The notes under the pieces: generated by a model
Databases searched by the model: none
Told to the model about the DNA's origin: nothing
The model's input: the letters and a program-made list of their open reading frames with translations, nothing else
Program-made: the position numbers and the translations under genes
Virus record (IMG/VR): IMGVR_UViG_3300031184_000008
Coordinates: 1-25,956 of that record
DNA: 25,956 nt
From: a virus
Taxonomy: Duplodnaviria > Caudoviricetes
Direction: 5' to 3' (one strand)
In this document: in pieces, positions 1-25,956 of the stretch
How the letters are laid out: the number at the start of each line of letters is the position of its first letter
How positions within the stretch are numbered: the first letter of the stretch is position 1

Positions 1-1211
1 ATCTCGCGCCGGTTCAGTTCCCGAAGCTGCTCGAAGTAGGCGAACTGCTTCGGCACCTGCTTGAAGGCGTCGCGGTTATCCGAGACCCAGTCCTTCGCGT
101 TGCTCGCAAGGGTCTTTCGCAAGGTCGCGTCTTCGATCAGGAGCGAAAGCTGCGCGACGAACTCGGCCGGCGTCTCGAACAGCAGGCCGGTCTCCCCGGG
201 CAGGATCTCGTCCTTGTAGGGGCCGGTCGCCTGCGCCAAGGTCGCCGCCGGCTTCTTCAGGACCGAGCCCTCGTAGAACTTGATCGCCGAGCGACAGCGG
301 TTGAAGCGGTTGTTGTTGAGCGGTGCGAGGTTGATGTCGTGGTTCATCATCGCGAGCCGGAGCTTGTATTCCGGGTACGGGCACCAGTTCTTGAACGTGT
401 AGCGGTCCGGGGGGATCAGTTCCGTCACCCAGTTGTACATCTGCCCCCAGATCGTCCAGTGCACATGCGGGTACTTGCGCGTGATCTCGCCCAAGGCCTC
501 GCGCAGCGGATACCAGTCCTCGTAGTGGCTCGCCCCACCCTGCCAGAGAATGTTGAGCCGCGCGGGATCCTGTGCCAACGCCACCTGCTCGTAGTGGTCG
601 AAGCGCACCAGATTCGGGAACACCTGCACGCGCCGCGGCTTCGCGTCCGCCTTCACGCACGCCGCCACGTGCGGCGTCGAGCACGTCACCGCGTCCGCCA
701 TGTCGACGATCTGGCGATAGGTCTCGATGGTCTGGCGGTTGCGCGTGATGTCGAAGCCGTCCTTGCCGTCCTGCCAGAGCACCTTCTTCTCGCCGTTCTG
801 CATCACGCCGATCATGTGCCCGGGCGGGATGTCCACCCCCTCGTGGTCGCGAATCCCCAAGCCCCGATAGGCGACGTTGTAGGGATTCACGTTGAACAGG
901 TTGTCGTCGGTGTCGATCACCACGCTCGGGGGATACTTCCAGCCGCCGTCGCGCTTGGACGGCAGGAAGCGCTTCGCGGTCCGCAGATTCTGCAACGTCG
1001 CGTCGCTCACCGCCTGATACAACTGGATGATGTCGGCTTCGCAGAACGCCGTCATCCGCTGCTGCGGGTCCACCGACCCGTCAGTGTCCACGTGCACACG
1101 GATCGGCAGCCCCAAGTCGCGTGCCGTGTGATACGGGACGAACAGGCGGTAGTAGAAGCTCGCGTTCCAGTTGCTCGGAATGTACGTGTAGAAGACGAGG
1201 GGCTCGGCCAT
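1..1211 (-). CDS. GT-B (GT4-like) glycosyltransferase, 3' end truncated by window edge
   Basis: Not in the ORF track; translated by hand from ATG 1211 (TAATG overlap): MAEPLVFYTYIPSNWNASFYYRLFVP...VVIDTDDNLF...ADAVTCSTPHV...ILWQGGASHYEDW...DINLAPLNNNRFNRCRSAIKFYEG...GETGLLF, open to the edge (>400 aa). These motifs are typical of phage GT-B proteins. Confidence 0.85.
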   Translation of the reverse strand, partial: MAEPLVFYTYIPSNWNASFYYRLFVPYHTARDLGLPIRVHVDTDGSVDPQQRMTAFCEADIIQLYQAVSDATLQNLRTAKRFLPSKRDGGWKYPPSVVIDTDDNLFNVNPYNVAYRGLGIRDHEGVDIPPGHMIGVMQNGEKKVLWQDGKDGFDITRNRQTIETYRQIVDMADAVTCSTPHVAACVKADAKPRRVQVFPNLVRFDHYEQVALAQDPARLNILWQGGASHYEDWYPLREALGEITRKYPHVHWTIWGQMYNWVTELIPPDRYTFKNWCPYPEYKLRLAMMNHDINLAPLNNNRFNRCRSAIKFYEGSVLKKPAATLAQATGPYKDEILPGETGLLFETPAEFVAQLSLLIEDATLRKTLASNAKDWVSDNRDAFKQVPKQFAYFEQLRELNRRE

Positions 1212-1429
1212 TACTTCTTCCGGAACTTGGCGATCACGCGCTTGCCGAAGTTGACGAGCTTCTCGCCCGGCGTCTCGGCGTTGAACTCGGGATGCGCGCC
1301 GGGCTGAATACCGCCCCCGCTGCGCGCCGCACCCACGTTGCGGCTCTCCAAGTCGTTCGTCCGGAAACCGACCTTCACGCTGTCGGGCCGCGACTTCACG
1401 GAACGCTTCCCAAAAATCGTCAGAGGCAT
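1211..1429 (-). CDS. Small basic hypothetical protein (72 aa)
   Basis: ATG 1429 overlaps the upstream stop (TGATG) and its stop overlaps the GT start; MPLTIFGKRSVKSRPD... Confidence 0.7.
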   Translation of the reverse strand: MPLTIFGKRSVKSRPDSVKVGFRTNDLESRNVGAARSGGGIQPGAHPEFNAETPGEKLVNFGKRVIAKFRKK

Positions 1430-1782
1430 CAGAGCGCCACCTTCCCGTCGATCATCGTCAGTTGCTTCGAGATCGGATCCTTGCGCCGATCGTACGTGCA
1501 GTGCTGCGGGTGCTTGGAAAGCCACCGGTAGAAGTCCTTCTTGTTCTTCATCCAGTCCGGGTTCAGCACGTGCGCGAGCGACTCGATCGGCCCCTGCAAG
1601 CTCGCGACCCGGTAGAAGCCGTTCGCCTTCGCTGCCTCGTCGACACCCATCACCGTGCCCATGCGGTCCTGCTGGCGCAGTTCGTGGATCGCGTTGTAGC
1701 GGTCCGCGTACGCCGGATTCGCCGCCATCCGCTCGGTGACGAGATCCAGCGCCTCGTCCGACTTGTCGACGAAGAAGCTCAC
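1429..1782 (-). CDS. Hypothetical protein in head module (117 aa)
   Basis: GTG 1782 in a GTGA overlap; C-terminal part of track ORF 1429..2211 (VSFFVDKSDEALD...). Confidence 0.75.
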   Translation of the reverse strand: MSFFVDKSDEALDLVTERMAANPAYADRYNAIHELRQQDRMGTVMGVDEAAKANGFYRVASLQGPIESLAHVLNPDWMKNKKDFYRWLSKHPQHCTYDRRKDPISKQLTMIDGKVAL

Positions 1783-2096
1783 TTGGCCCCCGGCATCCCC
1801 GGATAGGGGTCGGCGTGGGTGCCACGCTTCGCGTCGCTGCCCTGAAGATCGTGCGCCTCGGAGCGCTTCGCCCAGTCGGGCGTGCCCGGGGCCGAGCCCT
1901 GTTCCGGCGAGTGGCCGACGAAGGTCGGATCGCTCATCGCGCCCGGGATCGGGCCGCCGCCGTCCGTCTGATACGGCGTCTCGCGCACGTTGTAGTCGGC
2001 CTCGATCGAGCCGAAGCCCTGAATCACGTCGGGATCCCAGCCGTTCTGCTTGCTGATGATCTTGAGCGAGCGCGACTGGTTGTTCATGCGAGACAT
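1779..2096 (-). CDS. Hypothetical protein downstream of major capsid (105 aa, G/P/D-rich)
   Basis: Strong SD (GAAAGGAG) upstream of ATG 2096; coupled to the next gene. Confidence 0.75.
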   Translation of the reverse strand: MSRMNNQSRSLKIISKQNGWDPDVIQGFGSIEADYNVRETPYQTDGGGPIPGAMSDPTFVGHSPEQGSAPGTPDWAKRSEAHDLQGSDAKRGTHADPYPGMPGAK

Positions 2097-2122
2097 GCTG
2101 ATCTCCTTTCCGGTTCAGCCGA

Positions 2123-2144
2123 GGCGGGGCCAACACGCCCCGCC
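2123..2144 (-). terminator. GC hairpin after the capsid gene (attenuator or mRNA-stabilising stem)
   Basis: GGCGGGGC-caacac-GCCCCGCC perfect 8-bp stem just after the capsid stop; no U-tract. Confidence 0.4.
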
Positions 2145-2162
2145 CCAGCGTCCCCGAATGAA

Positions 2163-3167
2163 CTACGACACCAGACCCGCGGCGCCCGTCACGAACGTGA
2201 AGGCCGCCCACGAGGACGGGTGCGAAAGCTCAAGGGTCAGTTCCATCAGGAGCAGCCCCTTGGTGTTGTCGCCGGTCTTGCCCATCTCCTTGTGCTGCGG
2301 CGGGCGGTAGAATGCGAGCTTGCCCATCGAGCGATCGCCGAGGAAGTAGGCGTAGCCGTTCGCCGACGTCGTCCCCATCGGAATGAACCGATCGGTGATG
2401 ACCGCGAACAACTGGTTGAACGGCGTCTCGAAGACGTCGATGTTCGCCACCAGCCGCTGATCCGTGGCCGCGATGTTGCGGACATTGATCGCCGTGCCCA
2501 TCGTCTGATTCACGAACTGGAGCTTGCTGGACGGCGCGAACCAGACGGAGTCGGGCTCGGCACCGTTGTTGAACATCGTCATCGCGAGATTGACCATGTC
2601 GCCGGTCGCGAAGACCGTCACCGCCGCGGCCGAGGCCGTGGAGATGGAGCCGCCGCCACCGAACAGACCGCGCAGACCGACCATGAGCGGCGAGTTGGAA
2701 ACCGCCGAGGACTCGATACCCGTTGCCGCCGAGGCGGTGATGGACGAGTTCTTGAAGATGGTGTACTCGCAGTTGCGGGCGAGCACCTTCATCTCCTTCA
2801 TGATCTGGTGGTCGTACATATCGCGAATGCCGGCCGGGTTGGCAACCCGCTCGCGATCCGACACGGCCACGTCACGCCGGAAGATCTGCGTGTTGTTGTA
2901 GAGCCGCAGCGGCGTGGTGAGCGCGTCGCCCGCGTGCTCGGCGCCGTCCGGCGAGCCCGCCGACGAAACCGCCGTCAGCGAGTCGATCGGCCAGCTATGG
3001 ACCACGTCCCGGGCTCGGATCTTCGGAGCACCCGAGAAGAACGGGGTCTGGAAGCTGTCGATGATGGTGAGAACGTCGGTCAGATCCTCGTGATGGACCG
3101 CACCGGCGCTCGGAAAGAACCCGATGTCGAACGTCGACAGCAGGTTGGCAGGAAGTGCACCAGCCAT
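2163..3167 (-). CDS. Major capsid protein, SU10/DUF5309-like
   Basis: 334 aa with EDLTDVLTII..QTPF, HSWPIDSL, NNTQIFRRDVAVS, FETPF and ELTLEL motifs; follows portal and scaffold; SD AAGGAGGGAG. Confidence 0.9.
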   Translation of the reverse strand: MAGALPANLLSTFDIGFFPSAGAVHHEDLTDVLTIIDSFQTPFFSGAPKIRARDVVHSWPIDSLTAVSSAGSPDGAEHAGDALTTPLRLYNNTQIFRRDVAVSDRERVANPAGIRDMYDHQIMKEMKVLARNCEYTIFKNSSITASAATGIESSAVSNSPLMVGLRGLFGGGGSISTASAAAVTVFATGDMVNLAMTMFNNGAEPDSVWFAPSSKLQFVNQTMGTAINVRNIAATDQRLVANIDVFETPFNQLFAVITDRFIPMGTTSANGYAYFLGDRSMGKLAFYRPPQHKEMGKTGDNTKGLLLMELTLELSHPSSWAAFTFVTGAAGLVS

Positions 3168-3205
3168 TGTTCGCTCCCTCCTTGGAGCGGCAACCTCGTG
3201 ACGTC

Positions 3206-3871
3206 TTACTTATTCAGGAAGTCGTCCGAGACCGCCTGTGACAACCGCGCCTTAGCGAAGGCCCGAGGATCGCCCGTCTTCTGGTAGTGCTCCCACGTCC
3301 GGTTCAGCCGCTCGTCCTGCTGGGCGGCCGGCTGGGTGCGCGCATCGCCGGCTCGGCTGCTCGGAATCTGCGCCTCAGAACGCGCGATCTGCTGCGGCGT
3401 CGAGTCCCCGTTCGGGTGCTCGCGACGCTTCACATCGCCGTACTTGAGAAACGCGAACTCCATCGCCGAGACCGGATCCGCCGCGAACAGCTTCTGATAG
3501 CTCTGCGACAGGGAGGGGTCTTCGTTGATGAACTGGGCGACATCGGCCTCGTATTTCTGGTAGTCGGGGTGTGACGACAGCATCGAGTTGCGGGCCATCG
3601 CGCCACGCGCGATCGGCTCGAACGTCTCGTTCACTCGCGAGCGAACGTATTCGTCGAGCGCATCCACCGGCACGCCATATTCGGCAAGCCGGCTCGCGGG
3701 GTCGCCACGCTGGGGAACGGCCTGTCGCTGAACCTGCTGTTCGAGCAGGGTGCGGGCCGCCGCTTCCGCGGTGTCAGCGCGTTGACGCTGACGCTTCCCT
3801 TCGTCGCTCGACGATCGGTAAGCCTTCACCAGATCATCGACCGAATCGTATCCTGCAAACTCGTCTGCCAT
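3206..3871 (-). CDS. Putative capsid scaffolding protein
   Basis: Charged helical ~221 aa protein directly upstream of the capsid gene; YDSVDDLVKAY N-terminal motif. Start 3871 preferred over 3880 on SD spacing. Confidence 0.7.
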   Translation of the reverse strand: MADEFAGYDSVDDLVKAYRSSSDEGKRQRQRADTAEAAARTLLEQQVQRQAVPQRGDPASRLAEYGVPVDALDEYVRSRVNETFEPIARGAMARNSMLSSHPDYQKYEADVAQFINEDPSLSQSYQKLFAADPVSAMEFAFLKYGDVKRREHPNGDSTPQQIARSEAQIPSSRAGDARTQPAAQQDERLNRTWEHYQKTGDPRAFAKARLSQAVSDDFLNK

Positions 3872-3886
3872 CTTGAGCATCCTTGC

Positions 3887-4201
3887 TCACGGGTTCGCCG
3901 TGCTTGGGGTTCCATCCCTCCCGCGGTCGAGTTCGTCGAGGCGGGCGTTGCGGTCGTGGACGAGAAGTTCGTTCTCCCACGCCGTCACCATCCACTCATC
4001 CTCACGGATCATCGCACGAAGCACATCGTCGTCCGTGTCGAAGACCGTCTTCGCGTAGCTCGTGGCTCGTTCGGAGCGCGAGAGCGTCAGCGCCTTGATC
4101 GCGGTTCGTGCCCGATCCGCGATCTTCGGCTTCATCACATCATTCCATCCGTCGCCGGTCAGCACAACCCGAATTTTGTTGATCTGGTCCTCGTTGAGCA
4201 C
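3887..4201 (-). CDS. Small head-module protein between portal and scaffold (104 aa)
   Basis: GTG start abuts the portal stop; helical, charged. Confidence 0.75.
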   Translation of the reverse strand: MLNEDQINKIRVVLTGDGWNDVMKPKIADRARTAIKALTLSRSERATSYAKTVFDTDDDVLRAMIREDEWMVTAWENELLVHDRNARLDELDRGRDGTPSTANP

Positions 4202-6133
4202 CTAGCCCCCTGTCCCGCCGGTCATGGTGCCCACCATCGAGGGCGCCGCGTTGTTGCCGAGCATCTGGAGCAGGCCCGGATTGAGCCCCTGCAAGGGCTG
4301 GCCGGCGGCGTTTGCCACCGCCATCGGGTCCATCCCGCTCTCCTGCGCCATCATGTTCACCATCGGCACCTGCTGGACGAGCAGTTCGTCGACGTTCGGG
4401 TAGTCGAACAACTCGAACGCCTGCCGCGCGAAGTTGGCCCAGTTGACGATCTGCATCATCGCCGGGTTCGCGTTCAACACCTGCAAGAGCGAGACGAGGT
4501 TCTGCTGGCGGACCGAGCGCGACAGCATCTGGCTCGCCCCCACCGCGCGGGCGCGGTAGTCGGGGACGAGGTCGTCTTGGTCAATCGACACGTCGGTCGA
4601 CTGGTACGGGAGCCCGGTCCCGGGGTTCACCGTGGCGAGGCTCCCCAAGATCTTGATCTCATGCGGGAGGTCGAGCATCACGCGGTCCTGATTGCGAAAC
4701 TCGTTGGCGAGCGGCTCGACGAACTGTTCCTCCAAAAGCCGCGCCTCGAACGAGAGCCGCGTCATCACGTTCTCCTGCCGGCCGAGGAAGCCGCGCGCGG
4801 TCTCGCGATCGCCCTGCGAGAGACCCATGATGATGTCGTTGATGCCCACGCCCAACTGCATGAACTGCCAGAGTTGGCCGATCTCCTGATACGCGGCCTG
4901 CACCCCCTGCATGTTGGGCGCCATCGCGCGGACGTTGCTGTCGTCGGCGGCACCGTCCACCAAGAGGATCCGCCCCGCGCGCGTGAACAGGTTCTGCGAG
5001 TTCACGTTCGCCGAGTTCGACATCACCCACATCGGGTCGATCAGTTGATCGAGCGCGTCGAGCTTCTGGTTGGCAAGCCGGTTGGCGGTCATCTGCGGGC
5101 CGTAGGCGACCTCCGCCTTGCCGACGCCGTCGAAGCTGTAGGGGTCGGGCATCGGCGCGTAGGAGAGCCACGGCTTCTTGCCCGGGAACTGGCTGGGCCG
5201 GTTCTTCAGGACGACGCGGCCGTTGCCGATCGCGATGCAGCGATCGCGAATCCCGTCGGGTGCGAACTCGGCCGGCACCGTCCCGTGCATCTCCCACACC
5301 TCGATCGGCTTGTTGAAGCGCAGGGACGAGCGCGCGGTGTAGTCGTATTCGTTGCGGTACATGACGCGGCGCTCCTGAAACATCGTCTGCGCCCCTTGGC
5401 CCATCGGGTAGTCGCGCAAGAGGCGGACCGCGATCGGGTCGAAGTAGCCGTCCGGCTGCTGGGCATCCTCCAGCATCTCGTCCAAGTCGAGCCAGTAGCG
5501 CTCGATCGCCCAGTCCATGTCCTCGATCCGCTTCTTCGCCGGCTGCTGCCAGAAGTCGAGCCGGTCAATCGCCTTCCACGTCGGGCCGTTGAATAGTTCG
5601 CTGTCCTGCTCATGCAGTACCGGCACCCGCAGCCCCGGGGCGATCGACTCGTAGCGGACGAACTTCGACTTGCGAACGGTATGCTTCCAGCCGTAGCGCG
5701 CGACCGCGGTGCCGCAGATGTCGGCTTGCAGCATGAAGTCCACGGCGTTCAGGAGCGAGCCGCAGTCCTTCATCTGGGCCGAGATCAGGACGCTGTTCTT
5801 CTTGGCCCGCCCGACGTCTTCCGGTGCGTACCCTTCAAACTCGACGATCGGCCATGCGCCGAACGTGGTCTGCACCTTGCGCGCGACGTCCGACTGGATC
5901 ATCGCGAAGGTGAAGGGCAGCGTCACGTTGTTGCGAAACTGCGAGAGCCGCCCCTGCCAGTAGCCGCGGTAGCTGTTGTACCAGTTCTGGAGGCGCGCGA
6001 AGATCGAGTAGTTGTAGCGCAGCGACTCCTGCCGGCGGGTGTCGACCAGTTCGATCGTCCGCGCACTGCTCGGCCCCGCCACGCGGGAGTCGCGCGACGG
6101 GGCGCCGGTGTTCAGATTGATTCCGGAGGCCAT
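4202..6133 (-). CDS. Portal protein
   Basis: 643 aa between terminase and scaffold; ICGTAVARYGW, PDPYSFDGVG, ETARGF motifs and Q/M/G-rich C-terminus typical of SU10/P22-like portals. Confidence 0.88.
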   Translation of the reverse strand: MASGINLNTGAPSRDSRVAGPSSARTIELVDTRRQESLRYNYSIFARLQNWYNSYRGYWQGRLSQFRNNVTLPFTFAMIQSDVARKVQTTFGAWPIVEFEGYAPEDVGRAKKNSVLISAQMKDCGSLLNAVDFMLQADICGTAVARYGWKHTVRKSKFVRYESIAPGLRVPVLHEQDSELFNGPTWKAIDRLDFWQQPAKKRIEDMDWAIERYWLDLDEMLEDAQQPDGYFDPIAVRLLRDYPMGQGAQTMFQERRVMYRNEYDYTARSSLRFNKPIEVWEMHGTVPAEFAPDGIRDRCIAIGNGRVVLKNRPSQFPGKKPWLSYAPMPDPYSFDGVGKAEVAYGPQMTANRLANQKLDALDQLIDPMWVMSNSANVNSQNLFTRAGRILLVDGAADDSNVRAMAPNMQGVQAAYQEIGQLWQFMQLGVGINDIIMGLSQGDRETARGFLGRQENVMTRLSFEARLLEEQFVEPLANEFRNQDRVMLDLPHEIKILGSLATVNPGTGLPYQSTDVSIDQDDLVPDYRARAVGASQMLSRSVRQQNLVSLLQVLNANPAMMQIVNWANFARQAFELFDYPNVDELLVQQVPMVNMMAQESGMDPMAVANAAGQPLQGLNPGLLQMLGNNAAPSMVGTMTGGTGG

Positions 6134-6154
6134 CCGTGGCCTTTCTGCGCTCGC

Positions 6155-6985
6155 CTACGCGGGCGCTTCGACTCCGACGTGCAGCCATCGGTCGCGAAAC
6201 GCGGGCCATGTGTCCCGCAGTTCGCGTTCCGTGTCGTTGATCTGATTCTCGCCCAAGTTCGACCAGATGACCTTCGCGTACTCGCCGATCGGGTCGTGCA
6301 CCCGCACGCAGGGGATCCCCAGCAAGCTCGCCAAGACCACGTTGGAAGACCCCGAGCCGATCACCATCTTCGCATTCGCCATGAACTCGGCGAGCTTCAA
6401 GAAATCCCCCTGATCGTCGAAGGAAGTCCACTGCGGGTAGACCTCCAAGGCGCGCGCGCGTTCCTCGTCCGTCCCGACGAAGACGATCTCGTCGAAGCGG
6501 GTTGCCAGATCGTCGGCCTGATCGGAGAGGAAGCGCCAGAAGCCCGGAACACCGCTCATATGGCTCATGAACGTCCCGTGCAGGACCAACCGGCGGTGCT
6601 CGATCGCGGGGGAGACCACCGTCAGGCAGCGCTGGTTATCGCGCCGAGTGATCGAGAGCGGCACCTGATCGAGTGCGTCGAGCGTGATTTGGCGCATCGG
6701 GAAGCGGCGCATCCCGAGGTGGTAGATCTCGTGGTCCATGTGGTCCTTCATCGAGAGGCCGAAGTCCCACGGCTGCCCGCCCATATGCCAACTGGTGATC
6801 CCCGGCTTCAACTCGACGGCGTCGACGAACGGCTGTGCCGCGAACAGCTTCACCAGCGGCTTGCAGGTCGTCTCGTCGAGCCAGATCGTGCACGTCGTCT
6901 TCTGGTCCACGCAGTACCAGTAGGCGACCGGGAACTCGTGGAGCGAATCGCCCAGCTTGCCGGGCATCGTGAAGACGAGGCTCAT
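6155..6985 (-). CDS. GT9 (heptosyltransferase)-like glycosyltransferase
   Basis: ATG 6985 (ATGA overlap); N-terminal PGKLGDSL and C-terminal LAEFMANAKMVIGSGSSNVVLASLLGIP match GT9 signatures. Confidence 0.75.
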   Translation of the reverse strand: MSLVFTMPGKLGDSLHEFPVAYWYCVDQKTTCTIWLDETTCKPLVKLFAAQPFVDAVELKPGITSWHMGGQPWDFGLSMKDHMDHEIYHLGMRRFPMRQITLDALDQVPLSITRRDNQRCLTVVSPAIEHRRLVLHGTFMSHMSGVPGFWRFLSDQADDLATRFDEIVFVGTDEERARALEVYPQWTSFDDQGDFLKLAEFMANAKMVIGSGSSNVVLASLLGIPCVRVHDPIGEYAKVIWSNLGENQINDTERELRDTWPAFRDRWLHVGVEAPA

Positions 6986-8187
6986 AGGACCAGTCCGATG
7001 TCGGGCAGGGGATACAGGAACGTGGTGCCGGCGGCGCGGACGTGCGCTTCGCGGATGTCGAACTCGGGCTTGAACGCCCACGGCAGCGCCAAGGCGTAGC
7101 GCGGCGCCGCCTCGCGGAACTCGGCCTCGCTCTTGATCGGCAGCCACGTGCCGACCATCCGCAGGCCGTGCTTGCGCGCGTTGCGGTCGGCGACCGCCTC
7201 GAAATACTCGTGCATGTCGAGGTACTGCATCAGGGTCGAGCCCTTGGTGGACGCCCCGTAGGCCCACAGGTGGGGGCCGATGTTCGCGATCAGGTTGCCG
7301 AAGACGTGGCGCCACTTCCGCACGCGCTTCGCGAACGCCTCGGCGTCGTCGCTGGAGACGTTCGCGATGCCGCCCAACAGCCCGACCGGGGGCGAGAGGA
7401 CGCCCGAGGCGCGGCGCGCGATGACGCGCATCGAGGATCCGTTCGTCTCGTTGAAGGAGATGGATTCGATCAGGAGGCCGTGGCGGCGGTAGAGAGCGTC
7501 CAAGCTCCACGCGTCGTAGTAGCAGACGTGCTCGTGACAGATCGCGTCGAACGCGTTCTGCTGGAGCATGGAGGGGGCGTCGTTCAGTTGGTTGATCCAG
7601 ATGCCGTGCTCGGTGAGGGAGTCGTAGATGTCATCGAGGAAGGGACCGGGGCGGTCCAAGTCGTAGAACATCGCGGCCGAGGTGATGACGTTGAAGCGCT
7701 CGCCGCCGGTCGCCTTGGCCGTGAAGTAGTCGCTGACGACGTGGTCGGCCAGTTCCTGAAGCTCGCTCGCGAAGTTCAACGCCGGCTCGACCGCGACCTT
7801 GCGAAACTCCTGACTCACGCACGAGAGCAGGTAGCCGTCGTTCGCCCCGATGTCCAGCCACGCGCCCGCGGTGAAGAACATCTCGCCCACCCGCACGATG
7901 TCGGCGAGCGAGGCGCGCATCGACTCGTTGATGCCGCTGCGATACCAGAACTCTCGGTACAGCAGGTCGGGATCGACGGTGTGCGCGAGTTGCAGCAGGC
8001 CGCACTCGGCGCAGCGGATCAATTCGAGGGGCGCCTTCGGGAGGTCGGTGTCGGCTTCGGGGACGAAGCGGGGCAGATACTGGACGCCGAGGTCCAAGAT
8101 CGGCATCAGGTGGTGGGATTCGCAGGCGCGACAGGTCGCGCGCGGTTGGAAGATCGGCGTTGCGGTGCTCTGGGGCGCTGGCTTCAT
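6982..8187 (-). CDS. NDP-hexose C-methyltransferase-like SAM-dependent methyltransferase
   Basis: CRAC...CAECGLLQL Zn site, LDIGANDG SAM motif, FDAICHEHVCYY and YGASTKG: architecture of TylCIII/NovU-type sugar C-methyltransferases. ATG 8187 overlaps the terminase stop. Confidence 0.88.
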   Translation of the reverse strand: MKPAPQSTATPIFQPRATCRACESHHLMPILDLGVQYLPRFVPEADTDLPKAPLELIRCAECGLLQLAHTVDPDLLYREFWYRSGINESMRASLADIVRVGEMFFTAGAWLDIGANDGYLLSCVSQEFRKVAVEPALNFASELQELADHVVSDYFTAKATGGERFNVITSAAMFYDLDRPGPFLDDIYDSLTEHGIWINQLNDAPSMLQQNAFDAICHEHVCYYDAWSLDALYRRHGLLIESISFNETNGSSMRVIARRASGVLSPPVGLLGGIANVSSDDAEAFAKRVRKWRHVFGNLIANIGPHLWAYGASTKGSTLMQYLDMHEYFEAVADRNARKHGLRMVGTWLPIKSEAEFREAAPRYALALPWAFKPEFDIREAHVRAAGTTFLYPLPDIGLVL

Positions 8188-10064
8188 GATCTGATCGGCT
8201 CCCGGGGACAGTCCCTGATCCATTCCGCGGCCTCACTGTCGTCGAACATCTCGCGCGCGAGCCCTTCCACCGCCATCGCGGTCGCGCCCGGCTCGTAGGG
8301 CGCCTTCTGCGGACCGACCCGGCGCATCGGCTGGTAGAACTCGGGCTGGAAGGCGTCCGAATGGGCGTCAGCCCAGTCGTTTCGCAGCTTCGGGTTCACC
8401 ATGTACTGCCCGATTTTCGCCATCTGCTCGGCGATGCGCTCCACCCCGGGAGCAGACTCTACCACCCTTACATGACCGTCAACCCAAAAGGAGGCCGCCG
8501 AGACCATCCGCATGTACTTTTTCGTGTCCCCGCGGTTGTACTCGTAGTAGGGGGGCATCGGCTCGTTCGCGTCGGCGAAGAAGTTCTTCAGATTCGCCGC
8601 CAGCGAACCTTTCAGCCCCGCGCGGGCGGTTTCGCCGGAGATCCCGATGATGCGCCGCCCCTGCCGGCGATAACGCTGGACGGTCGCCACCAAGCGGTGC
8701 CCGAAGTCCTCCATGCGCCACGTCGGCGAGCCGTAGGCTTCGATGATGTAGACGTCGCCGCTGCCGTTTCTCGGGTAGCCGTGGACGATCATGACGGTCT
8801 CGTCCTTCTTCTCGCGGCTCTTGCCGTCCCAGAAGGCGATGTCGGTGGTGATGCCGAAGCGCAGGGAGGACCACGGCACCTCGGAGGACTTGATGTAGCA
8901 CTGCTTGATCTGGTCCTTCGTGATCGGGTTGAACTCCGAAAGCTCGGGGTCGTTCATCACCTGTGAAGCGAAGCGCAAGGGATCGCGGCGCTGGTAGTCG
9001 TTCAGCCGCGTCTCGGGCCACACCTTCGGGCTCGTGGGCTTGCCCGCCGCGTCGCGGCCGGCGAGGAAATACACGTCCCACTTCCCTTCCGGGCTCGCCT
9101 CCATCGACTCGCAGGGCATCCCCGCCAAGGAGCGGATGCCTTCCTCGCGGAATGCGACGCCGAAGTGATCCTCGTCGTCGTAGCGCGTCCCGACCCAGAC
9201 GACGATGCCGTCGCTCTGGAGCACGGGAAAGAGACTCGTCACCTGCGAGTTGACCGAGGTCAGCCAGTTCTCGTCGGAGAGCATCCGCTCGTAGCTGATC
9301 GGGTCGTCGTAGAAGATCGCGTCGGGATGTGCACCGACGATCGAGGTCTCGACGGCGAAGGTGCCAAGGCTCGGATCGGCGCGTGAGGTCTGCTTGCGCG
9401 CGGAGTGGGTCATCGCGGTCGCGGTCCACTGCCGGGCGTTGGCGGCCCAGTTGCCGTAGAGCTTCGTGAACAACGAATAGGGGTCCGAGCCGTCCAAGAC
9501 TCCGCGCATGATGCTGGCGAGCTTGGTCGCGAGTTGGATGCTTTCAGACCCCGTGTAGCTGGACAGTTCCGGGTCGCGTAGGTGGAGCCAGAGTTGCCCG
9601 GCCGCCGAGATCATCCGGCTCTTGCCCATCTCGCGGTGCACGAGGACCGCGAGGTGCTTCTGGAGCGTCAAGCCCTTGGCGCGGTTCTCCAGCCATTCCT
9701 CGACGTTCTTCTGATACCAGTTCGCCATCGGCTCGTGAATCGCGGGGTCGATCCACTTCTGCCCTTTGGGCGAACGGCCGTCGCCGAAGCAGTGCAGGAA
9801 GAACGTCCAGAAATCGCGCCGGCCCAACTCGCGCATCAATTCGAGTTCGTCGTCGCTCTGCCAGCCGCCGATGTGGCGCGCCATGCCGGCGCGGGCGGCG
9901 GCACGCAGTTTGTTCCGCGCGGCGGTGCGAACCTTGTTGTAGCAGGTCCAGCACTCGCCGCGACGCGATTGACCGGGTGGCATCTCCCTCTTGCAGTTCG
10001 CGCAGAACTTGAGAAGGGGAGTCAGCTTCGGGTTATTGGGATCCTTCGCTGTGAAGCGGGCCAT
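8184..10064 (-). CDS. terL: Terminase large subunit
   Basis: Walker A VHREMGKS, Walker B AIFYDDP, coupling motif VGTRY, FASQVMNDP, nuclease acidic motifs ITTDIA and NDWADA. Start uncertain (10103, 10064 or 9984). Confidence 0.88.
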   Translation of the reverse strand: MARFTAKDPNNPKLTPLLKFCANCKREMPPGQSRRGECWTCYNKVRTAARNKLRAAARAGMARHIGGWQSDDELELMRELGRRDFWTFFLHCFGDGRSPKGQKWIDPAIHEPMANWYQKNVEEWLENRAKGLTLQKHLAVLVHREMGKSRMISAAGQLWLHLRDPELSSYTGSESIQLATKLASIMRGVLDGSDPYSLFTKLYGNWAANARQWTATAMTHSARKQTSRADPSLGTFAVETSIVGAHPDAIFYDDPISYERMLSDENWLTSVNSQVTSLFPVLQSDGIVVWVGTRYDDEDHFGVAFREEGIRSLAGMPCESMEASPEGKWDVYFLAGRDAAGKPTSPKVWPETRLNDYQRRDPLRFASQVMNDPELSEFNPITKDQIKQCYIKSSEVPWSSLRFGITTDIAFWDGKSREKKDETVMIVHGYPRNGSGDVYIIEAYGSPTWRMEDFGHRLVATVQRYRRQGRRIIGISGETARAGLKGSLAANLKNFFADANEPMPPYYEYNRGDTKKYMRMVSAASFWVDGHVRVVESAPGVERIAEQMAKIGQYMVNPKLRNDWADAHSDAFQPEFYQPMRRVGPQKAPYEPGATAMAVEGLAREMFDDSEAAEWIRDCPREPIRS

Positions 10065-10620
10065 CCACGACGTCCTTGTCGTTGCGTACCACCGCGTCGC
10101 CATCGGCGAGCGCCTGCTGTGCGTCCGCGCGCTCTCGCGCGGCTCGTTCCACTTCGAGCTTCAGTGCCTGATCCTGACACCACGCGGCCTTGATCGCGAT
10201 GGATCTGCCGCTCGGGAAGCCGCGCGGCACCCCGCGGATCTTCGCCTCGGGGTACGCCTTGTTCAGCATCTTCAGGCTGGTGATGCGCTTGGCACGGAAG
10301 CGCATCTCGGGGGTTGCGTCCTCGGCCTCCGGCTTCGGCTTGAAGACGGTCGTCCGGTTCGCGTTCGGAAACGCGTAGCCGTACGCCGCCTGCGTCAGTC
10401 GGGCTCCTGCCCCTTTCATCACGCGCGCGAGACGTTCCACCACTTCGCCATCCGCCTGCGGCTCGGGCATGACGACGCTGGCACTCTCGGTGGTCGCGAG
10501 CATCTTGAGTGCTCGGAAGCGGTCGGCGCCGGCCTCGGGATCACGCGCGACCTCGGTGACGTGATCCAAGATCTCGTCCAAGGACATGCGTCGCTTCTGG
10601 GGGAGGGTCTCGATCGTCAT
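10033..10620 (-). CDS. Possible terminase small subunit-like protein (195 aa)
   Basis: Immediately upstream of terL; LDEILDHVTEVARD...DRFRALKMLA resembles TerS oligomerisation helices; ATGA overlap at start. Confidence 0.5.
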   Translation of the reverse strand: MTIETLPQKRRMSLDEILDHVTEVARDPEAGADRFRALKMLATTESASVVMPEPQADGEVVERLARVMKGAGARLTQAAYGYAFPNANRTTVFKPKPEAEDATPEMRFRAKRITSLKMLNKAYPEAKIRGVPRGFPSGRSIAIKAAWCQDQALKLEVERAARERADAQQALADGDAVVRNDKDVVDGPLHSEGSQ

Positions 10621-11420
10621 TTGTAGAGGTTCCCGTCGACCAGCCAGTAGGCGGCGGGAGCCGCGAGTTGGCGGCTCGACTCGGTGCCGCTGATGAAGCC
10701 GGTCGGGAACGCGCGGCTCGCCTGAGAGATCCAGCCCTGCGCGCCACCGCCGATCGGGTTGCCGACCAAGGAGACGCCCTGCTGCACGGTGGCGGGTGCC
10801 GCCCATGTGCCGGTGTCGGTGGTCGGACCGAAGTCGAAGGAGTTGTAGACCGCGATTAGGTTGGGGGTCGCGTTGGAGCCGGCGGTGAAGGTCGTGATCG
10901 TATCGTCGTCGCCGGTGCCGGTGTTGTCCTGATGCGCGCCCTGAACGAACTGGGTGGCGCCGATCAGGCGAAACACGATGATGGAAATCGCTTCCAAAGC
11001 GGGGTCGTTGAGCGAGATGGTCAGGTTGGCGGTCGCGGTCGCGCTGACCAAGAGGACGAACGTGTCGGTCAGGATGACGCTGTTGCCGCCCGGGTTGGTC
11101 TGCGCGAGTGGGGTCGCGCCCCACGTGACGCTCGGGAACACCGCGAGTGTTCCGTCATTGGCGGCGGCGACGTAGCAGCATAGGAGCGTGCCAGCCTGTA
11201 CGGTCAGGTTCATGACCGAGAGCGTGATCGAGGTGCCGCTGCCGGTATCGGTGCCGATCGCCTCGTAGACGAGCGGTGTCACGACCGCGCCCCCCGCGCC
11301 TTCGACGTAGCCCGAGAGGACCACCTCGCCGAAGGGCTTGCGCTCGAAGCTGCAACGCGGGCAGCGCGCCCCCTGTAGCGGAGCACCGCAGTAGTTGCAG
11401 GTCTGGGGCCAGTTACTCAT
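10617..11420 (-). CDS. Zn-ribbon plus Thr/Gly/Ala-rich beta protein (267 aa), possible virion or surface protein
   Basis: N-terminal CNYC..CPRC, then alternating hydrophobic/Thr beta-strand pattern. Confidence 0.6.
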   Translation of the reverse strand: MSNWPQTCNYCGAPLQGARCPRCSFERKPFGEVVLSGYVEGAGGAVVTPLVYEAIGTDTGSGTSITLSVMNLTVQAGTLLCCYVAAANDGTLAVFPSVTWGATPLAQTNPGGNSVILTDTFVLLVSATATANLTISLNDPALEAISIIVFRLIGATQFVQGAHQDNTGTGDDDTITTFTAGSNATPNLIAVYNSFDFGPTTDTGTWAAPATVQQGVSLVGNPIGGGAQGWISQASRAFPTGFISGTESSRQLAAPAAYWLVDGNLYK

Positions 11421-23663: not shown

Positions 23664-23687
23664 CCCTCTAACGAATTGGAGTCGGTA

Positions 23688-24221
23688 GTGGCGACCACCA
23701 AGAAGAAGCTCGCGAATAAGAAAAAGCGACCCCTGAGCCCGCTCATGCAGTTCCGCGCAGAGCTTCGCGCGGCGGCGAAGGCCGGTCGGCCGGCCCGTCT
23801 GCGCGGGGTTGATATTCAACTGCATCGGCTCGATCTGTCGGAGGCGCCCCTTCGGAACGCCGACTTGAGAGGCGCGAACCTGCGCTACTGCCACGTGCGC
23901 GGCGCCGACTTCTCGGGGGCGGACTTGCGAAGCGCGAGCCTGCCGTCGCCGAGCGTCATGCTGACCGCGTACTGGCCGAATCTCGACGACGACAAGCTGG
24001 TCCGCGACCTGATGCGCTACGACGCGGAGAATCACGAGAACCCCGATGCGTTCGAGACTTGGGCGGCGGGCGGACCGTGTCCCTACGAAGACTCCACGTT
24101 TAGCCGCGCGGCCAATTTCAACGAGGACACTGAAGCGTTCAAGCCCGGCCGCGCGCCGCGCGCTTACGATCTGATCGTGCGCGTGTTCAAGGCGGCCGGC
24201 GTCAAATGGGGGAGGATCTAG
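23688..24221 (+). CDS. Pentapeptide-repeat-containing protein
   Basis: LDLSE-APLRN-ADLRG-ANLRY-CHVRG-ADFSG-ADLRS; GGAG SD before GTG 23688. Confidence 0.8.
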   Translation: MATTKKKLANKKKRPLSPLMQFRAELRAAAKAGRPARLRGVDIQLHRLDLSEAPLRNADLRGANLRYCHVRGADFSGADLRSASLPSPSVMLTAYWPNLDDDKLVRDLMRYDAENHENPDAFETWAAGGPCPYEDSTFSRAANFNEDTEAFKPGRAPRAYDLIVRVFKAAGVKWGRI

Positions 24222-24222
24222 C

Positions 24223-24756
24223 ATGGCGACCACGATCACGGAAGCACTCGCAGAACTGAAGACCCTGACCGCGCGCATCGGCAAGAAGCGCGAGTTCGTC
24301 ACCGGGATTCTCGGGCGGCAGGAGGCGTTCAAGGATCCGCACGAGAAGGACGGCGGCTCGCGCGGCCTGATCGAGCGCGAGCGGCAGGCAATCGGCGATC
24401 TCGAAACCCGCGTCGTCGCGATCCGCTCGGCGATCCAGTTGGCGAACCGCTCGAACCAGATCACGGCCGGCGAGAAGACCAAGAGCATCAACGACTGGCT
24501 CACGTGGCGCCGCGACGTCGCCCCCGAGCAGAAGCGCTTCCTCGCCACGATCCAGAGCCACGTCGGGAAGATCCGTCAGAACGCGCAGACCAAGGGGCTC
24601 GCGGTCAACGCGGGCGAGACAGCGAAGCCGACCGACGTCGTCATCAACGTCGACGAGTACGCGTTGGCGAAGGAGATCGAGGCGCTCGAAGAAATCCTCG
24701 GGCACTTGGACGGGCAGCTTTCACTGAAGAACGCGACCATCACGATCGAGGTCTAG
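24223..24756 (+). CDS. DIP1984-like helical protein (177 aa)
   Basis: TITEALAELK...IRSAIQLAN...SINDWLTWRRD...LAKEIEALEE..LDGQLSLKNATITI follows the DIP1984 pattern (LAEAL, I..xN, LD..IQ.xN); GGAGG SD. Confidence 0.7.
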   Translation: MATTITEALAELKTLTARIGKKREFVTGILGRQEAFKDPHEKDGGSRGLIERERQAIGDLETRVVAIRSAIQLANRSNQITAGEKTKSINDWLTWRRDVAPEQKRFLATIQSHVGKIRQNAQTKGLAVNAGETAKPTDVVINVDEYALAKEIEALEEILGHLDGQLSLKNATITIEV

Positions 24757-24758
24757 CG

Positions 24759-25115
24759 ATGATCGAGGGCTTGAAGATTGGCGTCACGGGTAGCGAGCTT
24801 CGGGAGCGTCTTCTGCGGCGCGTCGAGTGGCACCGCAAGCGGGCCGAGGCGAACGAACAGAAGCGCGCGGCGATCGTGGGCGCGGGCGTCGAGGCGCGCG
24901 GCCGGCTCGAAGCCGAGGACATGGACGACGTCGAGATCGACGAACTGTTGAGCAATACCCAAGTCTACGCGCGGGGCACCGCGCGCGAGTACGTCGGCAA
25001 GATCATGCACAGCCGCCGCCGGGCTGATGCGCTTCAGTTCTTCGCCGAGCACGTCGAGGTGACGGAAAAGTACCTGCTGACCGAACGCGAGTTGACGGAG
25101 TTCGAGATTCTATAA
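24759..25115 (+). CDS. Hypothetical coiled-coil protein (118 aa)
   Basis: ATG 2 nt after the upstream stop; MIEGLKIGVTGSELRERL... Confidence 0.75.
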   Translation: MIEGLKIGVTGSELRERLLRRVEWHRKRAEANEQKRAAIVGAGVEARGRLEAEDMDDVEIDELLSNTQVYARGTAREYVGKIMHSRRRADALQFFAEHVEVTEKYLLTERELTEFEIL

Positions 25116-25350
25116 GGACACGCGCGCCTTGGCAGGCGAATCGGGAGAAGCACGAGCGACCTAGTACCGCACTTGAAAATGCGGTGGCACTTGGAGCCAC
25201 TTGAAGTACGACGAAGAAGGTCAGGGCTCACACGGTCAAACGCTCGGATGCTCACACGATCACCAGTTCACGGCTTACAAGCTCGACCAAAATCCCGCAG
25301 TGCCGAGATGTGCCGCTGAGAGGCGGCCGGCGCCCAGCGCTCATCGGGCG
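25116..25350 (+). ncRNA. Candidate structured ncRNA with phased short-repeat array
   Basis: ~290-bp gap in a tightly packed arm; closing helices 25128-34/25301-07 and 25142-46/25293-97; nine GNTCA/G units at 25219-25285; three CACTTG copies; GNRA hairpin at 25312-25327. Confidence 0.6.
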
Positions 25351-25405
25351 TTCCCATCGGGCGGGCAGCATGTTCGAGGCACGCGCCACTTTTCAACGCG
25401 GAGGC

Positions 25406-25714
25406 ATGATGGACGAAACGATCGCCGTACAGGTGGCGCGCGGCGCCGAGTGGCTCGATGCGGTGGCGCCGGGCTGGGAGCACAAGGTCAACACGACGGC
25501 ACTCGACATGGACCACAACTGCGTCATCGACCAAGCCCTCCCCGCGGGGGGCTGGACGAAGATTTATGTCGAGAGCGGGCCGGGCTGGGTCGTGAAGCAC
25601 GGGTTCGGATCGCGTGGCCGCGACGAGTGGATCGCGACGATCGAAGCACGGCGCGCGGAGCAGCGCACGCCGCTCGAAGTGCACGCTGAAGCGGAGGTGG
25701 TTCATCATGGGTAG
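25406..25714 (+). CDS. Phage hypothetical protein (~102 aa)
   Basis: VARGAEWLD...PGW...LDMDHNCVIDQ pattern; GGAGG SD. Confidence 0.72.
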   Translation: MMDETIAVQVARGAEWLDAVAPGWEHKVNTTALDMDHNCVIDQALPAGGWTKIYVESGPGWVVKHGFGSRGRDEWIATIEARRAEQRTPLEVHAEAEVVHHG

Positions 25715-25956
25715 CGGATCCTTCGACCCGAAGGCGTATGCGGCGTACACCCGAACGACGACCGGCAAGAGCACGGCCGACCTCTACACCGCCGGCACGC
25801 TCCACGCCGACCTCAACCCCCGGGGCGTCGCCATGCGCGAGAGCCGCGACAGCACCGACAACCCGCAGAGCACGCCGGTCATTGTCGCGCTGGACGTGAC
25901 CGGCAGCATGGGGATGCTGGCGGACGTGATCGCGCGCAGCGGGCTCGGCGTGCTGT
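25707..25956 (+). CDS. VWA (MIDAS) domain protein, truncated by window edge
   Basis: Hand translation MGSGSFDPKAY...RESRDSTDNPQSTPVIVALDVTGSMG; DxTGS MIDAS motif. Confidence 0.8.
   Translation, partial: MGSGSFDPKAYAAYTRTTTGKSTADLYTAGTLHADLNPRGVAMRESRDSTDNPQSTPVIVALDVTGSMGMLADVIARSGLGVL

Follow-up and report, generated by a model that had tools for sequence, protein, structure and literature searches.

A structured non-coding RNA, virtually certain to be real, lies on the + strand of a tailed-phage sequence (IMG/VR record IMGVR_UViG_3300031184_000008, Duplodnaviria; Caudoviricetes; "the window" is the whole stretch of 25,956 nucleotides analysed), downstream of the gene of a remote DIP1984/DUF6847 relative. 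Judging from sequence comparison, this RNA is probably bound by the product of that gene. As shown by comparison of homologous loci, the RNA combines a conserved fold, a fixed number of unpaired seven-nucleotide repeats and a tRNA-derived insert, and it is linked to the protein gene in both search directions (Table 1). The double-pseudoknotted core together with the counted array is a new RNA family, even if the counter-defence role considered below should fail.

Table 1. Features of the protein-RNA locus in the window
Position	Strand	Feature	Basis or remark
24223..24756	+	Gene of a 177-aa protein (helical hairpin) remotely related to DIP1984/DUF6847 and proposed to be the RNA-binding subunit	
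24759..25115	+	118-aa ORF between the protein gene and the RNA	Outside the conserved unit
25126..25380	+	Entire structured non-coding RNA, 255 nt	Covariation; sole covariance-model match in the window
25126..25137	+	P1 closing helix, 5′ strand	Pairs with 25368-25380; two-sided changes in 11/12 pairs, 94.7% of cells paired
25143..25147	+	Pseudoknot PK1, 5′ strand	Pairs with 25351-25355; two-sided changes in 5/6 pairs
25150..25158	+	Pseudoknot PK2, 5′ strand	Pairs with P6 loop 25338-25345; two-sided changes in 8/8 pairs, 76.1% of cells paired
25159..25216	+	Variable insert; in the window two small hairpins with imperfect anticodon-like loops	Sequence and homolog comparison
25217..25285	+	Nine-heptamer array, A-(A/C)-G-N-U-N-A	No conserved pairing
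25290..25367	+	Compact core (P3, P4, P5 GNRA hairpin, P6)	Covariation
25294-25298 with 25361-25365	+	P3	Core helix
25303-25306 with 25357-25360	+	P4	Core helix
25312-25327	+	P5 GNRA hairpin	Core helix
25331-25335 with 25346-25350	+	P6	Core helix
25368..25380	+	P1 closing helix, 3′ strand	Covariation

When loci were collected by the protein gene (153 loci, one being the window and several being duplicates), the RNA was found on the + strand in 145 of them (78/80 and 67/73) by means of a covariance model that covers only the 3′ 168 positions of the element and was trained on 50 of the 153 loci. Seven of the eight misses were loci cut short, and the other, L141, was a true miss, with the gene present and 822 nt downstream of it without any match to the RNA. 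The element was the only match of the model in the window, with a score of 78.5 bits, the window itself being part of the training set. In the reverse direction, a search that started from the RNA pattern gave 61 loci, 27 of which hold the RNA; the gene was found on the same strand and within 3 kb in 26 of these, the RNA of the 27th being placed at a contig end, and in none of the 34 loci lacking the RNA. The gene-based collection had not included 13 of the 27 contigs. A structure parser was applied with a threshold of 22.9, passed by 2/109 upstream controls (a value of 20.5 was too loose, with 28/109 passing), and the final counts were taken from the covariance model because the parser misses real elements. 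The sequence-only reading of the window had proposed a structured non-coding element with a repeat array behind a DIP1984-like gene; this association proved to hold in both directions, and the closing stem of the array RNA covaries across 98 homologs.

The 98 non-redundant elements measured 215-347 nt. The RNA begins at most 35 nt past the stop codon of the gene in 76 of these loci and more than 130 nt downstream of the gene in 12, the window among such cases, while in L040 and L053 it is placed upstream; the upstream and the distant placements fit a trans-acting partner. Apart from the homologs of the 24223-24756 protein, no neighbour recurred in more than 6 of the 98 loci. The short distances are favourable to an alternative, considered unlikely, in which the RNA would be a stabilizing or autoregulatory structure on the mRNA of its own gene, bound by the protein as HutP is on a terminator, and would serve as a site where tRNA genes insert and decay. 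The promoter scan of the window, which returned no promoter-like + strand site before the RNA, also speaks for such a cis-acting structure. However, the RNA can be located upstream of the gene or be split from it by unrelated ORFs, a T run was observed 3′ of the element in only 36/98 cases, and the covariation described below revealed neither an alternative terminator fold nor helices involving the array.

The two ORFs listed by the sequence-only reading, at 24223-24756 and 24759-25115, are both present, and the second had been taken as the partner gene of the first. This candidate was ruled out, since none of 58 candidates was a homolog of the 118-aa ORF, searches against Pfam, NCBIfam and PHROG gave no match, no usable Atlas feature matched it, and the gap between the first gene and the RNA is short in most other loci. 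In the window, phage-type genes coding for an ArdC-like protein, a PD-(D/E)XK exonuclease and a helix-turn-helix protein were identified near the element by Pfam and PHROG searches. An ORF for a pentapeptide-repeat protein (23676-24221) precedes the protein gene, and a cut-off ORF (25707-25956) with a PHROG 2971 match and, by eye, a von Willebrand A-like motif lies 3′ of the RNA; neither is recurrent in the homolog loci. Farther away, the region 339-10626 contains several large ORFs (200-600 aa) with no Pfam or PHROG match.

The fold of the RNA was recovered from covariation. Mutual information calculated on sequence-only alignments, with no prior fold for the inner helices, revealed P1, P3, P4, P5, P6 and the two pseudoknots, PK2 emerging de novo. 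The element ends had been set by a parser favouring P1, PK1 and P3, so these three are less independent, while P4, P5, P6 and PK2 were not selected for. In a separate alignment of 44 sequences, 89.7% of the cells were paired, versus 65.5% after shuffling and at most 49% in slid controls, and two-sided changes were observed in 45 of 48 pairs, these covariation statistics ignoring kinship. The window RNA forms all the conserved helices, PK2 being present with 7 pairs and with its register shifted relative to the family alignment. Moreover, the 39 paired columns of the 44 sequences contained 211 G-U versus 33 A-C cells, an excess that establishes the + strand as the RNA strand, as the sequence-only reading had supposed. 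The GAGA-loop hairpin that it had noticed at 25312-25327 covaries across homologs as well; its loop is of the GNRA type in 37 of 44 sequences, and the loop sequence varies together with the P1 pair 25136:25369 (GAGA with G-C in 48 cases, GCAA with G-U in 12), which suggests, from the alignment, a tetraloop-receptor contact.

The long-range pairs that had been thought to enclose the array, CGGGA(25142)/TCCCG(25293) and CTTGGCA(25128)/TGCCGAG(25301), were right in their 5′ strands and wrong in their 3′ partners: these strands are complementary in the window only, and in the 98 homologs the 5′ strands covary with 25351-25356 and 25368-25380. Consequently, the element ends at about 25380, past the boundary of 25350 assigned before. 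The folding energy of the single sequence was ordinary (z +0.73, with 153 of 200 shuffles folding as well), and therefore the structure rests on covariation and not on energy. An open frame was found in only 16/98 elements, whose lengths are not multiples of three. In Rfam 15, a comparison that had been suggested along with the sequence-only reading, no family was found for the scaffold: the window gave 0 matches at E<=1, and in 12 homolog loci and nine phage loci only tRNA scored above the gathering score. A minimal element, L121:3035-3222, is missing the entire insert as well as the 5′ strand of PK1 and keeps P1, the array and the core, and it could be a natural deletion or an assembly artefact.

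The architecture of the core recalls RNase P, in which P1, P2 and P4 seem to be arranged much like the closing helix and the crossing helices found here. The core could thus be a derived RNase P-like ribozyme, or a relic of one, acting on the tRNA in its own loop, a reading for which the closing helix and two crossing helices beside a conserved strand rich in A in which a single base varies, together with the presence of a tRNA in cis in 21/98 elements, can be adduced. It is nevertheless very unlikely, given that no Rfam RNase P match was obtained in the window (E<=1), in the 12 homolog loci (E<=0.1) or in the nine phage loci (E<=1), and that the invariant bases face each other as A-C, which is not a standard pair.

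In the window, the heptamers of the array start at 25217, 25224, 25232, 25240, 25248, 25256, 25264, 25271 and 25279, and the chain reached a score of 21.4 versus a shuffle maximum of 10.7, none of 2000 shuffles attaining it with a profile learned on a set that included the window. The nine motifs of the GNTCA/G type reported from the sequence alone are indeed in place, each corresponding to the last five bases of a heptamer; the true unit, deduced from 821 units, is A-(A/C)-G-N-U-N-A and not GNTCA alone. The number of units is nine in 49 and ten in 22 of the 98 elements (9 or 10 in 71/98), and the lower counts, in the printed rows, were mostly chains interrupted by inserted hairpins or by divergence. 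The step between units is 7 nt in 537 of 723 cases, and the last unit starts 14-15 nt 5′ of P3 in 84/98 elements. Units 1, 4 and 9 are the most conserved, the junction between units 4 and 5 is irregular, and in 5/44 aligned RNAs inserted hairpins separate unit 1 from unit 2 with the later register kept. No Watson-Crick covariation was detected within the array, where the top APC was 0.24, versus up to 1.39 in the helices.

By analogy, such a counted, unpaired and base-specific array would be what a protein lattice reads. TRAP is a homo-oligomer that reads short motifs at fixed spacing in single-stranded RNA. HutP, another homo-oligomer, likewise uses short fixed-spacing motifs in single-stranded RNA, comparable to the periodic unpaired motifs found here; the available portion of its description reports motifs read 7 nt apart, so such a spacing can be read by a protein, and a model RNA whose motif copies are separated by spacers of 4 nt and fall into two groups located on two hexamer faces (PMC2425495). 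The irregular junction between units 4 and 5 is reminiscent of that two-group layout, as far as it is described there. However, HutP and TRAP are ligand-gated attenuators acting on an mRNA leader, whereas the RNA around the phage array is closed and double-pseudoknotted, covariation gives no sign of a second fold, and the protein is folded differently. An attenuator-type array over a terminator/antiterminator in an mRNA leader was not encountered: the RNA is mostly 3′ of the gene, no terminator-like site was found at the element in the window, and the array showed no alternative helices.

Other repeat-containing RNAs were also compared with the array. The antitoxin RNAs of type III toxin-antitoxin systems consist of tandem pseudoknot repeats. 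In the accessible part of one account, these systems join an endoribonuclease toxin with an RNA antitoxin (PMC12283969). This candidate was rejected, the repeats here being 7-nt and unpaired and the protein having no nuclease family match. VIPR, in the part of its description that is available, also combines a phage protein (Vipr) with an RNA (vrRNA) of short tandem units that have constant and variable bases, and with a pseudoknotted part that follows the repeat tract as a tail (10.64898/2026.04.26.720920). The array might accordingly be a VIPR-like non-contiguous guide, in which the variable bases would specify a nucleic-acid target. Positions 4 and 6 of the unit are indeed variable (entropy 1.81 and 1.83 bits), and in seven near-identical, non-independent pairs position 6 had an identity of 0.87 versus 0.96 at four-fold sites. 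On the other hand, at 70-90% protein identity the variable positions were as conserved as four-fold sites or more so (0.72 and 0.58 for positions 4 and 6 versus 0.58 in 4 pairs; 0.56 and 0.53 versus 0.43 in 15 pairs), the 26 pairs of the whole comparison not being independent. Moreover, each locus holds one RNA, and Vipr, as far as it is described, is a RAMP/RRM protein with hypervariable guide bases, whereas the protein model obtained here is a long helical hairpin, the bases are not hypervariable and the unit count is nearly fixed. A guide function is thus extremely unlikely.

Regarding the protein, a word search retrieved 1299 homologs, and a profile search gave 1306 clusters (50% identity); scanning viral contigs with the single window protein gave no relative, and the relatives emerged with the family alignment. 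No Pfam match and no relevant NCBIfam match were obtained for the window protein, including PF20935 and NF038048 at their curated cut-offs (27 bits and 70 bits), and neither the family profile nor the protein of Ralstonia phage RsoM2USA had a significant sequence match among solved structures. PF20935 was weakly matched (E<=0.1) by 23 of 113 family members, with a best E of 1e-4. The predicted structure (pLDDT 93.9) comprises four long helices and short strands, and among solved structures 3KDQ of Corynebacterium diphtheriae matched best (Z 11.2; 151 residues aligned, rmsd 7.6). In Foldseek, 3KDQ was found with E 1.4e-3 and TM 0.51, nothing in the PDB reaching E<=0.001. It was the top match in both structure searches, with 151/152 residues covered and a high rmsd (7.6-8.7), which indicates the same overall fold, and 3KDQ is itself a close sequence relative of a NF038048 (DIP1984) member (E 3.3e-34). 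On these profile matches and the predicted fold, the protein is a remote DIP1984/DUF6847 relative and not a member by either family cut-off, so the by-eye DIP1984 assignment was borne out as remote kinship only.

The sequence-only reading had also proposed that this protein oligomerizes on the RNA. In a four-copy complex prediction, the self-association score was 0.67, versus 0.00 for the best control, one of the three runs scoring 0.02; the contacts agreed by at least 20% between runs, with a partner pLDDT of at least 71. In the calibration, which did not use four-copy jobs, 20 of 30 solved pairs and 1 of 23 single chains attained the mark used for self-association; likeness to the solved 3KDQ may contribute to the score. 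The protein is therefore predicted to self-associate through a symmetric interface; the confident contact is a single two-chain one, and no ring was predicted.

The protein also matches PHROG 1491 (E 1.9e-10), and the label of this group, like that of many records, is that of a tail fibre protein. Under the least probable of the readings weighed, the protein would be a virion tail-fibre part and the repeats a signal acting in the DNA or a short coding stretch. This is opposed by T5.085, the homolog in phage T5, whose neighbours are metabolic and tRNA genes and not structural ones. The excess of G-U over A-C cells, the GNRA loops, the tRNA loops and the rarity of open frames argue against a signal or coding function of the repeats, as does the period of 7, which is not a codon multiple. 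As a separate observation, T5.085 (L245:5506-6144) and many of its orthologs are labelled tail fiber protein and yet are located outside the structural genes, before an unannotated array RNA.

Between PK2 and the array, the insert consists of 25-158 variable bases, being absent from L121. In the window, its two loops comprise 8 nt (25172-25179) and 7 nt (25189-25195, with A32 and C33). Among the homologs, a tRNA was called in 21 of 98 inserts with a relaxed threshold, and Rfam scored 6 of 12 tested inserts as tRNA. The D and T motifs appeared in the order D-then-T in 19 inserts and in the permuted order T-then-D in 4, while 16 had only a T loop and 59 had neither (n=98); overall, a T loop was present in 38/98. 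Hairpin loops of 7 nt numbered 106, versus 19 in shuffles, a five-fold enrichment, and the 70 non-T loops of this size preserved C32 in 61%, U33 in 67%, a purine at 37 in 81% and A38 in 69%. An anticodon-like hairpin was also found in 32 of the 60 inserts without D and T motifs, versus a shuffled mean of 3.0 and maximum of 9, the other 28 having no canonical one. The commonest anticodon was UGA (10/49, a count that ignores relatedness), and the anticodons span many amino acids. Other tRNA genes were located nearby in only 11 of 66 loci of at least 4 kb. As shown by this comparison, the insert appears in homologs as tRNA-derived, in the form of whole, permuted or reduced tRNA pieces that are often anticodon-like hairpins. 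The CCA end is kept in 10 of 19 normal-order tRNA inserts, which may simply be working tRNAs, and this favours the cis-acting, tRNA-carrying structure considered above; the retention of anticodon-loop signatures in decayed inserts, in turn, goes against it. The circularly permuted modules (T arm, stem-loop, D arm) resembling YrlA were seen in the L018, L027, L063, L153 and L161 inserts.

The Y RNAs of Ro60/Rsr, such as YrlA (RF02553), are a close parallel to this organization, since the available part of their description places the RNA beside its protein gene, in bacteria and phages, with a protein-binding and a tRNA-mimic module (PMC4201824). The permuted T-then-D inserts are a further likeness to YrlA, D and T motifs occurring in 23/98 elements and T only in 16/98, not in the window copy. 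In the main rival explanation, which is considered rather unlikely, the same particle would work as a Y-RNA-like tether, with the tRNA-like module recruiting a host factor that handles tRNAs (in processing, repair or decay, or at the ribosome), and not as a nuclease sponge. It draws on this two-module logic, as far as that source presents it (PMC4201824), on the permuted inserts, on the frequency of T loops and on a weak YrlA match in L161, whose 41.9 bits fall short of the gathering score (69). However, binding to one constant host partner would be expected to require a constant module, whereas the insert ranges from none to a whole tRNA with anticodons for many amino acids, and a nuclease, ligase or Ro60 gene was not recurrent nearby. 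YrlA gave no match above its gathering score in the window, the 12 homolog loci or the nine phage loci, and no TROVE-domain protein was detected, the linked protein having no Pfam match and the flanks of 2.5-4 kb no recurrent large neighbour. The phage system also differs from Ro60/Y RNA by its repeat array as the proposed binding site, by a larger pseudoknotted RNA and by a highly variable tRNA module, often with an anticodon loop.

In the preferred reading, the RNA would be co-transcribed with the gene and then processed out, and P1, both pseudoknots and the GNRA contact would clamp its ends into a stable core. Within each heptamer, the protein would recognize the conserved positions A, G, U and A, its oligomers binding the array unit by unit to form a ribonucleoprotein particle from which the insert would project outward as the effector. 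The displayed tRNA-like hairpins could then be decoys for host tRNA-cutting defence nucleases, a main role that is suggested by analogy and put forward only tentatively. This last step is proposed because anticodon-loop signatures are kept in non-translatable inserts and because counter-defence roles of phage tRNAs have been published: phage tRNA sequences, according to the accessible parts of two reports, oppose host tRNA-cutting defences (PMC10264068; 10.1101/2023.03.15.532788), and the mycobacterial data of the first one name Ser-UGA/CGA/GGA as targets of nucleases, which mycobacteriophages leave out of their own tRNA sets (PMC10264068), UGA being also the commonest anticodon of the inserts. 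The phage tRNAs with such a role, as far as those descriptions go, are free molecules that work as tRNAs and replenish the pool, whereas many of the inserts here are partial, permuted or hairpin-only pieces within a scaffold. Against decoys stand the 59 of 98 inserts without a D or T motif and the imperfect loops of the window itself.

The bacterial members of DIP1984/DUF6847 (NF038048, PF20935; 3KDQ) share with the phage protein a fold match over the whole length and a conserved downstream RNA-like element, and they differ from it in that the window protein is longer, has mostly viral relatives and is accompanied by a different RNA. Neither a function nor an RNA partner of this family was found in print. 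Bacterial DUF6847 genes were present in 14 of 201 genomes of one phylum, and those compared (L163-L173, L177) had another conserved element behind them, roughly 200 nt long, whose ends are complementary; it contains short repeats inside and a G-rich motif at its 3′ end, and some copies also have a T-loop. This element had no Rfam match, and the phage covariance model matched 0/11 bacterial loci; it is likely the bacterial counterpart RNA. Since these genes carry a different RNA, the core role of the family need not be anti-defence. In two genomes, tandem DUF6847 paralogs are located 2 kb apart (L165/L178 and L166/L177), the element of the second copy being without the G-rich 3′ motif.

Among cultured phages, a distant homolog in Ralstonia phage RsoM2USA led to 747 records. 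All nine loci analysed matched the family protein profile, with a gap after the gene, and had the P1 and P3 junction, identified in seven by script and in L156 and L161 by eye; the covariance model matched at E<0.001 in 5/9, and the repeat profile was significant (0/200 shuffles) in 5/9 gaps. In T5, 11 heptamers lie just 3′ of T5.085, in a gap unannotated in the T5 record (about 43145-43495, minus strand), and the array RNA was the sole covariance-model match in 18 kb (E 6e-6); T5-type array RNAs have 10-12 units instead of 9. With T5 and hundreds of cultured lytic phages included, the system is tentatively regarded as a possible widespread new class of phage ribonucleoprotein, in which a helical oligomer on counted heptamers and a pseudoknotted clamp would show an exchangeable tRNA-mimic cassette against tRNA-cleaving immunity, bacterial DIP1984 being a sister class with its own RNA. 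The system resembles HutP or Ro60-Y RNA in parts and belongs to neither. In the literature searched, no description of the array RNA, DUF6847, T5.085 or related identifiers was found, and supplementary candidate-RNA lists may contain the RNA. These findings supply a probable RNA partner, and thus a testable function, for a DIP1984/DUF6847-like family often labelled 'tail fiber protein', and they reveal an unannotated RNA in a classic model phage. If the proposal is true, phages would oppose host defences in a new way, by means of a scaffold whose tRNA-mimic loop can be exchanged, which bears on why phages keep tRNA-like sequences. At about 1.6 kb from the array RNA, T5 also carries the annotated RNAX (L245:2849-3567), a stable 719-nt RNA.
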